DNA from: Chrysomallon squamiferum
Lineage: Eukaryota > Animalia > Mollusca
Length of the DNA: 64,000 bases
Assembly: GCA_012295275.1 (NCBI GenBank)
Contig: CM022677.1
Coordinates: 24,552,001 to 24,616,000, forward strand
Reading direction: 5' to 3'
Below the pieces are notes generated by a model. The model did not search any database and was not told the origin of the DNA. It saw only the letters and a list, made by a program, of their open reading frames with translations. Positions 863 through 63,486 of the stretch are shown piece after piece; position 1 is the stretch's first letter; every line of letters begins with the position of its first letter. Both the position numbers and the translations under genes were made by a program.

Positions 863-1203
863 TTACAATTCCTCAATCGGAGCGTTTAGAGTGAGTTTCT
901 CGCTTAAACTGTTTCCGTTTCGACACCTCCACTGATTGAGATCGATGTGACGTAAGCGTCGAATCGTCAACGCGTAAACTCTGACGTCAGACTTCTTGGC
1001 GGAGCAGCCGCAGTGGTACTCCGGTATTGGCAGCCTCATTTTGCACTGTTTGTCAACTACGCATATTGACCAAAATCCAGACCCGAAATTTCGTTGGAAG
1101 TCCATCGCAGACAAAATATTTTTAGCAGGAAAAATCGAGCAGTAAAGAATGTATTTATCTCCTGTCTCCGAAGATAGTGACACACCTATGCTCAGACTTA
1201 CAT
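863..1203 (-). CDS. G1 terminal exon: Cys-rich Ig-like domain 3 (VSLSIGVSLSSETGDKYILYC...DLNQWRC...PIEEL*)
   Basis: Acceptor ggttttag at 1205-1204, phase 1, stop TAA at 865-863. Full 6-Cys family pattern. Closest in-window relative is 62876-63193 (shared RNFGSGF..C.VDK.CKMRLP..EY.C.C). Confidence 0.85.
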
Positions 1204-1469
1204 CTAAAACCAGAGTTTTTTTTGTTTGTTTAAATAAATATTTTAATAATTATCGTGATGTTTTATTGCTTCATTATCGTCATGATTATCATGTTTATCA
1301 TCACATACATCATAAGCATTATTATTTATACCGCGACTTGTACTATTTACTTTTGATTATAATTTTTTTTCATTATTCTACTGCAGTTATTATTATTATT
1401 ATTATTATTATTATTATTATTATTATTATTATTTTGTTGTTGTTGTTGTTGTTGTTGATCATTATTCAG

Positions 1470-1582
1470 GTGATTATCGTGACGTCATCAAGATAAACAA
1501 AGAGATGTTTAAACGATGGCTTCTTATGTCGATTCGTGACGTCACAAACCACATATCGGCGTTACGTATATCTAACATGCAG
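1470..1582 (+). CDS. Exon of single-pass membrane protein gene fragment, copy 1 (GDYRDVIKINKEMFKRWLLMSIRDVTNHISALRISNMQ)
   Basis: ttattcag acceptor and gtacgt donor, phase 1->0. Joins in frame to the 3183 exon and is conserved at 54124-54236. Confidence 0.7.
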
Positions 1583-2116
1583 GTACGTCGGAGTTATCTT
1601 CCCTTACTTGTCACTTTTATTTCTCGTACAGTCGAAGGTCTTTACAAGATCCCCTGAATATCGCATTTCCATTCATTATCCTAAAAATGCTTCAGGACAG
1701 ATCTTCTGTATTAATTTTAAATACCTTTTCTTTATTTCTTCACCTCAGCATAGACTTTTATTATTCTCTACGAAAGTGGTTTTCAATCTGTGGTAAACAT
1801 AACCAGCAGACATCAAGACTAATCGAGCAAATTAAACTAGAAGATCACCAAAAGAATGATAAACCATTCTCGTCAGACTCTCCATAAATATTCCTAATTA
1901 TTGTTATTATTATTATTATTATTATTATTATTATTATTATTACTATTTCAAAAATAATATTTTTGCGTTGTATTGTATCCAATTAAGACACATAGTTTTG
2001 TTCACGTATTAACATATATCGAACCTAATCTACCCTGAATCATATCAACGAAATAGTTTTCTGTGAATGGATACAGATAAAAAAATTTAAAAAAAGGATA
2101 AACCTATGCTCTAATG

Positions 2117-2378
2117 CACTGGTCTTCAACCTTTCTCATGAGCAACTCAAAATGACCGATGACCCCTTTAAAAAATTTTGATTCAATAATATCTAGGGTT
2201 ACCATATTTTCATCAACCAAAGACAGTACAAAAGGAATCTATATTCACTATGACTATACGTTTTTATTTATTCCTTCTTCCAAGTCAAGTTGAAAAAAGC
2301 TAAAACATACCCTCGCTCAAGAACGATCTCGCGACCCCCAGAAAAAAAGGATGGCGACTCCCGGGTTGAAAACCTGTG
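2117..2378. mobile_element. hAT/Charlie-like MITE, 262 bp
   Basis: Imperfect TIRs CACTGGTCTTCAACC / GGTTGAAAACCTGTG (13/15) and degenerate 8-bp TSD ctctaatg / ctgtaagg. Confidence 0.65.
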
Positions 2379-3182
2379 CTGTAAGGTAAACGGGCAAACA
2401 CTGGGGTCATTTTAGGCGAGTGCTAAGATTTAGTGTGTACAGTAATTCGTACTAACCAGCTTGCTTTGACACCAAATCCAACTCAACGCAAATGGTAGAA
2501 AAAGGAGCTGAGAGAGAGAGAGAGAGAGAGAGAGAGAGAGAGAGAGAGAGAGAGAGAGAGAGAGAGAGAGAGAGAGAGAGAGAGAGAGAGAGAGAGAGAG
2601 AGAGAGATGCAGCATAAGCAAAACGTTACCTGACAAAGCAAAATGAATGCAAGCATTTCTAGTGCATGATGGGATACTGTTATAATGGCTAACCTAGTGT
2701 TACCTAATTTGAATTTGTTATTATTACTGCTGCTACTACTACTACTACATCTACTACTACTACAACAACTACTACTACTACTACAATTACTAGTACTACT
2801 AGTATTACTTTAAATCTCAATCTGCGTTTGATCGCTCCTGGTTGATCTAATATTAATTAATTTGTTTTTATTATTATTAGTGATACTACTATTACTACTA
2901 CTACTATTTCTGCTATATTACTACTACTGCTACTATTGCTACTGCTGCTACTGCTACAATTATTATTATTATTTTAAATCTCATATTTCATGTGATCGTT
3001 TCAGTTTATCTTGTGTTAATTAATTTGACTTTTTTTTATTATTACCGGTGATACAACAACTACTACTACTATTACTACAGTAGTGCTACTACTAATACTA
3101 TCATTACTACTAGTGCTACTACTAATACTCTATTGCTGCTATTATTATTAATTTAAAACTCATAATTGATTTGATGTTTCAG

Positions 3183-3356
3183 GTTGACCTAGGCCAAGAG
3201 GACATTCTGGTTTCGTTCCGTCTTTTGGACGTGGTCCCGATTAAAGGCGACGTCTCGAATCCGGCGAAACAGATTTCTATGCAGGATGCCGCAGACATGA
3301 TCACTTCAGCCATTAATTCCAAACAGTTTGGTATCCAGATTGTAACGCATTTAAAG
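3183..3356 (+). CDS. Membrane protein fragment exon, copy 1 (VDLGQEDILVSFRLLDVVPIKGDVSNPAKQISMQDAADMITSAINSKQFGIQIVTHLK)
   Basis: tttcag acceptor and gtgagt donor, 174 nt, phase 0-0. Non-repetitive, protein-like, duplicated at 55859-56032. Confidence 0.8.
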
Positions 3357-60585: not shown

Positions 60586-60903
60586 ACGACTCTGTAGAAA
60601 TCACAGGATCAAACGCTGCAGTCATTGGCAAACCATACTACCTGTTCTGTAGCGTGGAGAACGTCACACACCCCATCGTTTTCGGAAGAAACTTCGGAGA
60701 CCGGTTTGGTGCCATCTGCTTGGTCGACCTGACATGCGTGCATCGCTTCAAAGTCGCCGACTACAGCTGCGAATGTTTCGGCGAAAGGGACGGCCGTAAA
60801 TACTTCAGGATGTCGATCCTGGCTCTGAGGAGCATGGACCACGCAGAGTGGAAATGCCAGCACGGAGAAGAGTACAGTGAAGTTTTGTCGTTCAGGGTTG
60901 AAG
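60586..60903 (+). CDS. G8 Ig-like domain exon 1 (DSVEITGSNAAVIGKPYYLFC...DHAEWKC...FRVE)
   Basis: ttttgcag acceptor and gtgcga donor, 318 nt, phase 1-1. Confidence 0.88.
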
Positions 60904-61759
60904 GTGCGAAGTGATAAAGAACATAGCGTTAAAACGAGTTGCTCTGTAGTTGTTGTGTTTCTGTTGTTGTTGTTGTTGTTGTTGTTATATTTTTAGACTG
61001 TTTATTTATATATACTGATTTTTTTAAATTGTTTTATACCTTTTTTTTTGTTGTTGTTGTTGTTGTTGTTGTGAATTTTGTTTCTTGAAAAATATTACCA
61101 CCACCACCACTACTACTACTACTACTATTACTACTACTACTACTACTACTACTACTAATAATAATAATAATAATAACAAACATAAGAAGAAGAAGAAAAA
61201 TAAATAAAAGAAGAAGATGATTATGATGATGATGATGATGATGATGATGATGATGAAGAGGAAGAAATGGAAAGATGATAATGAGAATAAGGATGAAAGT
61301 ATAAATTTATTAATCCCATATTTATTTATTTACTTATTTACTTATTTTCTTATTTATTTTATTTATTTTATTTTATTTACTTATTTATTTATGTATGTAT
61401 ATTTTTATTTAATTATTACATTATTTTATTTTATTTATTTATTTTATTTATTTATTTATTTTTATTTTGTTTTATTTTATTTATTTATTTTATTTATTTA
61501 TTTTTATTTTTTTTTATTTATTTTTTTTATTTTATTTTTTATTTTTTATTTTTTTTTTATTTTATTTATTTATTTATTTTATTTTATTTTTATTTTTTAT
61601 TTATTTATTTATTTATTTTATTTATTTTATTTATTTATTTATTTATTTATTTTTTTTTTATTTAATTTATTTTATTTACATATCTAATTATTTTATTTTA
61701 TTTTGTTTATCTACTTATTCACTTTCACACCAACTACAATCGAACTCTTACATTTCCAG

Positions 61760-62086
61760 AATTTTTCCTACTTATCCGGGGTGGTGATCTAGGGGTACTC
61801 GACGAACCATACAGCATTCTGTGCAGGGCGGATCCCATCCCGGACAAAATCTACCCGATCATTTTTCAAAGAAACGTGGGCCATGGCTTCAGCGGTCTTT
61901 GCACAATAACCATGGACTGTACGAACTTGTTCGTGGTCCCTAACTATTCCTGCGGCTGCCTGCAAATGAATTCACAACACAGGTTCTACAAACTGACGAT
62001 AGACAGTATGAGAAAAGTGGACCACGCCTTGTGGAGGTGTCAGCAAGGAAGGAGATACAGCAACTACATCACCTTCAAACTTCAGG
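61760..62086 (+). CDS. G8 Ig-like domain exon 2 (FFLLIRGGDLGVLDEPYSILC...DHALWRC...FKLQ)
   Basis: tttccag acceptor and gtaaga donor, 327 nt, phase 1-1. Confidence 0.88.
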
Positions 62087-62875
62087 GTAAGAACGCTGAA
62101 ATAGGGGGAAAAGTTGGTTTTTACTGGTTCTTAAAATCACACTGCTGCGATGGATGTCAGAGTGTTAAGAGTTATTTAGTGAACAGTGTTAGGATTTTGT
62201 GTCTGAATGGTAACAATGATGATGATGATGATGATGATGATGTTGATAATAATGATAACGATTTTGTGTCTGAATAGTAAGTATAATGATGATGATGATG
62301 ATGATGGTTATAATGATAATGATAATAATAATAATAATAATAATATTAATACTCACAACAATAATGATGATAATAATGAATAATAATAATAATAATAATA
62401 ATAATAATAATAATAATAATAACGATAACACTGATAATGGTTATAATGATAATGATTATAATAATAATAATAATAATAATAATAATAATAATCACAACAG
62501 TAATGACGATAATAATGACGATAATAATAATAATAATAATAATAATAATAATAACACTGATAATGGTTATAATAATAATGATAATAAATAATAATAATAA
62601 TAATAATAATAATAATAATAATAAATAAACATATAATAATAATAATAATAATAATAATAATATAATAATAATAATAATAATAATAACAAGAAGAAAAAGA
62701 AGAAGAAGAAATGATAAATATCAATAGTGATACAACAACAACAACTCCACCATCATCACCACCATCACTACCACCACCACCAACAACAACAACAAACAAA
62801 CAAAAACGACGATGGCAGTAACAGTTAAAACTGACTGAAGTCAAATTTTATTTCATTTTTTTTTTTTTTTTTCAG

Positions 62876-63193
62876 ACGTAAGCGTTTCTATGTACAGGTC
62901 AGTGACCCCAGTGCTCGGCAGTTCGTACTCTGTCTACTGTCTCGTTTTTCCGTCTAAAAACATCCTCGGCCCTTTGTCCTTTAAACGAAACTTCGGCTCG
63001 GGATTCTCGGTCGCTTGCGTCGTCGACAAAGACTGCAAAATGAGGCTGCCTCTATCTGAATACGTCTGTTCGTGCACGAAGACGGAATCGAAGATGCGAA
63101 TATACAACTTGAAAATAGTGAACCTGACTGCGATGGATATGCATCAGTGGCAGTGTATCATTGGAAAGTCAGTAAGCAACATAATTGTGATAA
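62876..63193 (+). CDS. G8 Ig-like domain exon 3 (VSVSMYRSVTPVLGSSYSVYC...DMHQWQC...NIIVI)
   Basis: Poly-T cag acceptor and gtaagt donor, 318 nt, phase 1-1. Confidence 0.88.
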
Positions 63194-63370
63194 GTAAGTA
63201 ATAAAAAAAAAATATATATATATATAAAAACGGCAAGGAAAAAAAAAAGTAACGTAATAATAATAATAATAATAATAATAATAATAATAATAATAAGAAG
63301 AAGAAGAAGAAGAAGAAGAAGAAGAAGAAGAAGAAGAAAAAATAGTTTTAATGAATCCTCTATTTTGCAG

Positions 63371-63486
63371 ATCTATATTCATTTTCACATATTTTTCATA
63401 GTAATATTATACAATTATATCTTACGATTTTTGTTATCATCTTTATTTTCAACACTGTAATTACGTTGAACGATTTAATTATGTAA
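63371..63486 (+). CDS. G8 candidate terminal hydrophobic (TM/GPI-signal-like) exon (NLYSFSHIFHSNIIQLYLTIFVIIFIFNTVITLNDLIM*)
   Basis: First good acceptor (tattttgcag) after exon 3, open in phase 1 with a hydrophobic stretch. AT-rich DNA can mimic this. Confidence 0.45.

Follow-up and report, generated by a model that had tools for sequence, protein, structure and literature searches.

Across most of a 64,000-nucleotide (nt) stretch of the genome of the mollusc Chrysomallon squamiferum (GCA_012295275.1, contig CM022677.1, positions 24,552,001 to 24,616,000; hereafter the window), copies of one cysteine-rich immunoglobulin (Ig)-like domain follow each other, which raises the question of what these genes are and what their products do. 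The best reading of our results is a birth-and-death cluster of about eight tandem genes from an uncharacterised gastropod family of V-type Ig domains. With a probability of roughly 0.55, the products are secreted rods of two to four V domains with multivalent binding to surfaces, and serve as soluble equivalents of the receptors that carry this domain at their tip.

Thirty exons of one domain

Using six-frame translation and a profile made from the window's own open frames, we identified exactly 30 one-domain exons between positions 863 and 63198, 27 on the minus strand and three on the plus strand, each 102–107 codons long and all following a single common template. At E<1e-5 the profile recovered 33 frame segments from the real window, where split frames from frameshifted exons are counted separately. 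Neither the reversed window nor any of ten block shuffles yielded one. As the profile is self-derived, the splice sites serve as an independent check. All 30 exons have an AG acceptor two bases ahead of the first aligned codon, in the same phase-1 register, and 27 have a phase-1 GT donor just past the last strand (two of these donors were taken from the printed sequence rather than from the regular-expression list). The donor is missing from the exons at 27150, 33527 and 881.

Twenty of the exons fall in five tandem A-B-C-D units spaced 5.4–7.2 kb apart. The minus strand carries a four-exon gene (G7, 48.2–45.2 kb), the five units, each with a leader, a gene with a leader and two exons (G1), and a lone exon at 863–1203. 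The plus strand carries G8, with a leader, three Ig exons and a tentative hydrophobic tail. The features, with Cys for cysteine, TM for transmembrane and GPI for glycosylphosphatidylinositol, are the following.

863..1203, minus: O881, orphan or terminal six-Cys V-type Ig exon; reads through to stop; nearest to the last Ig exon of G8
9353..9676, minus: G1 Ig exon 2; profile and splice sites; phase-1 donor kept
10412..10738, minus: G1 Ig exon 1; profile and splice sites
11287..11344, minus: G1 predicted signal-peptide exon; phase-1 donor
13847..14173, minus: unit 1 exon D; donor kept; read-through stop after 3 codons
14411..14737, minus: unit 1 exon C; profile and splice sites
15185..15511, minus: unit 1 exon B; profile and splice sites
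15932..16258, minus: unit 1 exon A; profile and splice sites
16517..16606, minus: unit 1 leader-like open reading frame (ORF); common donor out of phase
20138..20464, minus: unit 2 exon D; profile and splice sites; phase-1 donor kept
20791..21118, minus: unit 2 exon C; 1-nt frameshift at an A run
21829..22155, minus: unit 2 exon B; profile and splice sites
22454..22780, minus: unit 2 exon A; profile and splice sites
23282..23369, minus: unit 2 predicted leader exon; weak phase-1 donor
27123..27472, minus: unit 3 exon D; donor lost; reads through to stop
27772..28098, minus: unit 3 exon C; profile and splice sites
28930..29256, minus: unit 3 exon B; profile and splice sites
29607..29933, minus: unit 3 exon A; without Cys53
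30527..30614, minus: unit 3 predicted leader exon; weak phase-1 donor
33527..33850, minus: unit 4 exon D; 1-nt frameshift; donor lost
34203..34529, minus: unit 4 exon C; profile and splice sites
34740..35066, minus: unit 4 exon B; profile and splice sites
35312..35637, minus: unit 4 exon A; 1-nt frameshift at a T run
35890..35977, minus: unit 4 predicted leader exon; weak phase-1 donor
39364..39690, minus: unit 5 exon D; basic, net charge +13; structure modelled
39875..40201, minus: unit 5 exon C; profile and splice sites
40766..41092, minus: unit 5 exon B; profile and splice sites
41373..41699, minus: unit 5 exon A; acidic; modelled as V-type Ig
42101..42188, minus: unit 5 predicted leader exon; weak phase-1 donor
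45229..45540, minus: G7 Ig exon 4; profile and splice sites; phase-1 donor kept
45865..46191, minus: G7 Ig exon 3; profile and splice sites
47188..47499, minus: G7 Ig exon 2; profile and splice sites
47858..48183, minus: G7 Ig exon 1; 1-nt frameshift near an A run; upstream leader not found
59762..59819, plus: G8 predicted signal-peptide exon; moderately hydrophobic; phase-1 donor
60586..60903, plus: G8 Ig exon 1; profile and splice sites
61760..62086, plus: G8 Ig exon 2; profile and splice sites
62876..63193, plus: G8 Ig exon 3; donor, or read-through stop
63371..63486, plus: tentative G8 hydrophobic tail exon (GPI signal or TM segment); AT-rich, could be chance

Twenty-six of the 30 exons are intact, with no in-frame stop in any of their 102–107-codon domains. 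The other four carry a 1-nt frameshift (20795-21116 in unit 2 C, 33527-33848 in unit 4 D, 35316-35635 in unit 4 A and 47862-48181 in G7 exon 1), three placed by alignment and the fourth from split frames and the printed sequence. Long-read errors are common at A/T runs, and since all four frameshifts sit, by eye, in or beside such runs, some of them may be assembly errors. Nine columns are invariant in the intact exons (C21, F35, C47, Y62, C64, C66, W91, C93 and S100), and 25 of the 26 intact domains have the full six cysteines, the exception being unit 3 exon A. The preliminary description of this DNA had proposed 30 one-domain exons on a common template, with Phe replacing the C-strand Trp and four extra cysteines around C′–D, all of which held up in the profile count, the phase-1 splice sites, the null controls and the conserved columns. 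Its count of eight groups stands if the lone exon joins the gene at 9–11 kb and becomes nine otherwise; such a join would cross an N gap (6064-6263, between G1 and the lone exon) and a duplicated piece of another gene.

Fold of the domain and its gastropod relatives

AlphaFold2, given the window's own alignment, modelled the unit 5 domains A5 and D5 with a predicted local distance difference test score (pLDDT) of 93.5 and 96.5, respectively. The best Foldseek matches of the A5 model were antibody and nanobody V domains (TM score 0.70-0.84), and a wide VIA-align search gave Z 14.9 with a root mean square deviation of 2.1 over 103 residues, VHH, CD8a and T-cell receptor V domains being tied at the top. 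In the predicted models a two-sheet beta-sandwich has C′ and C″ strands superposing on V domains (strand letters were assigned by us from V topology), and the B- and F-strand cysteines, C21 and C93, are present in 26/26 domains. The models thus point to a V-type Ig fold, which narrows the earlier assignment to Ig.

Other features of the Ig superfamily (IgSF) are absent. The C-strand Trp of the C-W-C pin is Phe35 in all 26 domains here and in 89 of the 96 relative domains described below; Ig domains without this Trp are known (PMC9546547). The Pfam V-set profile matched only 3 of 17 domains scanned, the best at 18.4 bits against a cut-off of 26, and a sequence search of solved structures gave nothing at E<=0.001 (best 0.014, antibody light chains). 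In the Atlas, D5 was nearest to three unnamed clusters (0.94-0.95) and then to V-set clusters; the commonest phylum was Mollusca for the two nearby clusters with a record.

Word-based protein searches returned nothing at E<=0.001, which is weak evidence because a full HMMER scan matched 91 proteins at E<=1e-3. In 77 of them the WxC core is present, in 96 domains altogether. The remaining 14 fail the core filter, and the three inspected (P0001, P0024, P0084) are ordinary multi-Ig proteins. We looked up 30 of the 91 and could name 25, all from gastropods and with automatic names: 15 from Gigantopelta (e.g. XP_041373256.1, XP_041367795.1, XP_041372829.1), six from Haliotis (e.g. XP_046543344.1, XP_071095565.1), three from Lottia (e.g. 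ESO97173.1) and one from Patella (XP_055958759.1). The hhalign probability to one relative, P0007, was 97.6. These uncharacterised proteins share a homologous domain with the B-strand Cys, the C-strand Phe and DxxxWxC. By profile homology and by the C...F...DxxxWxC core, the window domains belong to an unnamed gastropod Phe/Trp V-type Ig family.

Most of the relatives are membrane proteins with further domains, whereas the window genes are Ig-only. Among relatives of at least 250 amino acids (aa), the domain begins within the first 60 residues in 29/33 and a later hydrophobic segment is found in 20/33, with Ig-FN3, adhesion G protein-coupled receptor (GPCR) and EGF as partner modules. Three Gigantopelta proteins (P0002, P0005, P0010) are tandem arrays made of this domain alone. 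The Patella protein P0011 is an adhesion GPCR with two six-Cys copies at its N-terminus. A single 53.4-Mb sequence carries nine of the 15 named Gigantopelta relatives (P0002, P0006, P0009, P0025, P0035, P0047, P0053, P0079, P0088), and a single 45.3-Mb sequence carries two Haliotis cracherodii matches; these shared locations are possibly a conserved gastropod Ig-receptor region.

The models place Cys47 on C′, Cys53 in the next loop and Cys64 and Cys66 on D, and predict three disulfides, namely the canonical B-F bond (21-93), Cys47-Cys64 and Cys53-Cys66. The AlphaFold and Foldseek check suggested in the preliminary description thus gave an Ig beta-sandwich with three predicted bonds. Among the 96 relative domains, 51 have 53/66 alone, nine have 47/64 alone and 15 have both, and the co-occurrence of Cys47 with Cys64 and of Cys53 with Cys66 is significant (Fisher p 7e-11 and 2e-5, relatedness ignored). 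The extra cysteines therefore behave as two optional pairs, from which disulfides 47-64 and 53-66 are also predicted.

In a quick tree of 117 columns, the window's 26 domains formed one group apart from all 96 (Shimodaira–Hasegawa-like approximate likelihood ratio test 94), and their best identity to the relatives was 28-34%. Judged from the relatives and from this separate group, the domain is probably gastropod-wide and its expansion local. The family had been described as lineage-specific and expanding. The five tandem units and the group of their own agree with local expansion, and "lineage-specific" fits the window subgroup but not the domain, which is common, six-Cys form included, to limpets, abalones and Gigantopelta.

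Variation among the units and competing readings

Paralogous intact unit exons are 82-97% identical, so the five units are neither recent duplicates nor an assembly redundancy. The pooled ratio of nonsynonymous to synonymous substitution rates (dN/dS) is 0.48 for A, 0.72 for B, 0.87 for C and 0.56 for D exons. Counted as proportions of differences (pN/pS), the ratio is 0.40 (confidence interval, CI, 0.28-0.54) in the framework outside five loop regions and 0.74-1.18 in the loop regions, all with CIs that include 1. The framework is under purifying selection and the loops are near neutral; the fold is maintained and the surfaces are free. Synonymous differences between C1 and C5 amount to 3.5/72, against 20.5/70 for A1-A5 and 18.7/69 for D1-D5 (p<0.001), D2 is nearest to D5, and A2 and B2 are nearest to unit 3. 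Because the pairings of C1 with C5 and of D2 with D5 are discordant with the other exons, the units appear to be mosaics that have exchanged exons, for which gene conversion or unequal crossing-over would be the simplest cause.

In the reading we prefer, each unit would be transcribed from its own leader and end at or just after exon D. The extra disulfides would stiffen the C′-D side of a domain without the core Trp, and since linkers between domains are almost absent, the product would be a rod of two to four V domains. In mucus or haemolymph, the loop-rich faces of this rod would make multivalent contacts with foreign or self surfaces. Duplication, unequal crossing-over and exon exchange, not somatic change, would be the source of variety, and G8 may be membrane-tethered.

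Several results weigh against this. No loop region has a pN/pS significantly above 1, so positive selection is not detected there. Motifs resembling immunoreceptor tyrosine-based inhibitory or switch motifs (ITIM/ITSM) occur in 3 of 20 tails of relatives against 2.1 expected, which is chance level, and ITIM enrichment was rejected. As assembled, units 2, 4 and G7 are frameshifted. Seven leader-like ORFs lie one each ahead of the five units, G1 and G8, and those of the units, kept in all five and near-identical, encode a plausible signal peptide. Their only common GT, however, is a weak GTACTA donor, in phase in 4/5 and out of phase in unit 1 (16.6 kb), and a search upstream of G7 (the 45-48 kb group) found no leader. 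Gene ends are not fixed either, since three D exons (D1, D2 and D5) retain a phase-1 donor. Secretion is predicted from the leader ORFs. The earlier claim of leaders ahead of seven of eight groups is thus matched by seven ORFs but qualified by the donors. The description as mostly secreted fits Ig-only, mostly anchorless gene models with predicted leaders, with weak leader donors on the other side. The proposed recognition role, like any immune role, is inferred, with neither positive selection nor ITIM enrichment in the relatives to strengthen it.

As for the leaders, four units have a strong donor (AG-GTAAGT or AG-GTAAAT) some 110-130 bases further along; of those translated, only unit 5 keeps a stop-free frame up to it. 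A GA/GG donor right after the last Gly codon of the leader was rejected, as conservation continues past that point. At the other end, D3 and D4 have lost their donors and read through to a stop, which D3 reaches in 8 codons; with read-through, D1 and D5 would reach one in 3. AATAAA downstream of D exons was uninformative at a background of 4.75 per kb, and a conserved downstream acceptor in three units led to no consistent coding frame. No other domain scored above cut-off in a Pfam scan of 84 of 100 filtered non-Ig open frames (the remaining 16 are second-copy, microsatellite-derived or leader frames, and the filter left out frames <32 aa or <33% GC).

Among the sequencing runs listed as matching unit 5, none was of RNA. 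One unclassified run contains 0.54 of the unit 5 words, but it may be the source sample and hence gives no independent support. RNA run X3 yields a single 180-nt contig (depth 3.15) on G7 exon 1, which spans 48113-48184 and extends past the exon end; it is compatible with DNA carry-over and gives no splice evidence. Runs X1, X2 and X4 gave 0 for this exon.

The domains of a unit differ in charge. Every intact A copy is acidic (net charge -2 to -4, isoelectric point (pI) 5.0-6.2) and every intact D copy basic (+5 to +13, pI 9.0-10.0). Acidic first and basic last domains would suit disulfide-stiffened rods that assemble head to tail, i.e. secreted structural or adhesive proteins of mucus, glue, shell or egg matrix, and the lack of demonstrable positive selection in the loops fits as well. 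A proteomic study of a peltospirid snail reports Ig and FN3 proteins in the sclerite matrix as well as an expanded Ig-domain family (PMC11871041), which may or may not be those of the window. We nevertheless consider this explanation unlikely, given that most relatives have the domain at the N-terminal end of a membrane protein, and that loops differ freely between paralogues, something a protein that builds lattices would be expected to tolerate less well.

The five units could also be mostly decaying segmental duplicates, with one or two working genes and the rest unexpressed pseudogenes. The four frameshifts among 30 exons, the two lost D donors, the out-of-phase unit 1 leader and the pooled dN/dS of the B and C exons all agree with decay. 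On the other hand, the 26 intact domains are stop-free with invariant core residues, the framework ratio is 0.40, and the frameshifts lie where long-read errors are prone to occur, which makes general decay quite doubtful. Least probable, and by our estimate very unlikely, is that a single complex locus, using alternative promoters and splicing across units, comprises all minus-strand exons and gives chains of varied length or a shared 3′ end: all 27 have phase-1 acceptors, so any join would be in frame, and D1, D2, D5, G7 exon 4 and G1 exon 2 retain phase-1 donors, but the minus strand of the window has no recognisable downstream exon, transmembrane or constant, that the units could share, every unit has its own leader, and D3 and D4 have no donor.

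Known systems and neighbouring sequence

VCBPs of amphioxus and Ciona are secreted tandem V domains from a multigene family, with a C-terminal chitin-binding domain. The likeness lies in the secreted tandem V domains; VCBPs themselves were ruled out, as the Pfam scan described above gave no chitin-binding match. Hemolin is a four-domain horseshoe. In design, the window proteins may work like VCBPs, hemolin or the Lymnaea MDM. MDM and insect hemolin are Ig-only defence or recognition proteins and the closest functional analogues for a soluble multi-Ig chain, but hemolin comes from one gene and MDM has five C2-like domains (PMC11999971), where the window has a tandem family of six-Cys V-type domains that lack Trp. 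Gastropod FREPs are likewise secreted, with a signal peptide and tandem IgSF domains, in a snail multigene family; in Biomphalaria a fibrinogen domain follows one or two IgSF domains (PMC7588048). The same scan found no fibrinogen domain in its 84 frames, which ruled out FREPs as defined by that domain, and no search returned a FREP sequence. The FREP/VCBP analogy drawn in the preliminary description therefore survives as a VCBP-like design, with neither accessory domain found.

In the Hydractinia Alr cluster, too, divergent Ig genes stand in tandem with pseudogenes and escape standard profiles, with one domain per exon and some putative secreted forms. Alr V domains lack the B-F cysteines and are followed by an FN3-like spacer and by TM and tail exons, whereas the window keeps the B-F pair and adds two more (PMC9546547). 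Alr was ruled out by the B-F cysteines, no FN3 being found and no TM exon on the minus strand. TIM IgV domains also have three disulfides, but keep Trp53 and place the extra bonds, Cys52-Cys63 and Cys58-Cys109, in the C-C′ region (PMC6269442). Here the extra cysteines are in C′, the following loop and D, and mucin, TM and tail parts are absent; the differing positions and the missing Trp ruled out TIM. Clustered Ig genes of Pinctada fucata are copy-number-variable and proposed for innate recognition, but their Ig domains are Pfam-recognised, often with FN3 and TM parts (PMC9646362).

We found no published description of this domain in a search largely outside subscription journals and supplements, so that a prior description is possible; the family is apparently undescribed. 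What is known of recognition proteins in molluscs comes mainly from FREPs and a few oyster receptors. As expanded divergent Ig clusters recur in invertebrates (Alr, Pinctada), the arrangement itself is unsurprising. The domain falls below Pfam cut-offs, and Pfam-based catalogues of gastropod immune or adhesion proteins would therefore miss it, though it is present in at least 77 database proteins from three gastropod lineages. The cluster offers a concrete, testable soluble set of small, disulfide-rich, expressible single domains, and a natural series of four- and six-Cys variants of a Trp-less V fold. A bolder proposal, which we regard as quite speculative and doubtful, is that one variable-recognition system, so far undescribed, is common to limpets, abalones and vent snails. 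In many receptor types of this system (Ig-FN3, adhesion GPCR, EGF), the ligand-binding tip would be a V domain that lacks Trp and has extra disulfides that can be switched, and this locus would be the soluble, antibody-like arm of the system, with four-V-domain proteins diversified by germline exon exchange, possibly with cross-unit splicing, to sort microbes or symbionts.

Outside the Ig exons, about 4.7 kb are duplicated (1356-6063 and 54006-59077, 84-93% overall, microsatellites included). The piece contains four exons from the 3′ end of a single-pass membrane gene, unrelated to the Ig genes and without a Pfam match above cut-off; the two sets of these exons are found at 1.5-4.5 kb and at 54.1-57.3 kb. 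The left copy of the piece stops at the N gap. Because these exons occur twice with 528/536 bases identical, the left window end may be haplotig or assembly redundancy, or a recent duplicate. The plus-strand stretch 53016-53100 combines a strong branch point and acceptor with an open frame behind them and is possibly an upstream exon of the same membrane gene. A 450-base repeat rich in GACGTCA motifs occurs at 6267-6715 and 53385-53833 (90% identical), with similar motifs near 7.6, 43.3 and 44.4 kb, and is probably a dispersed element.

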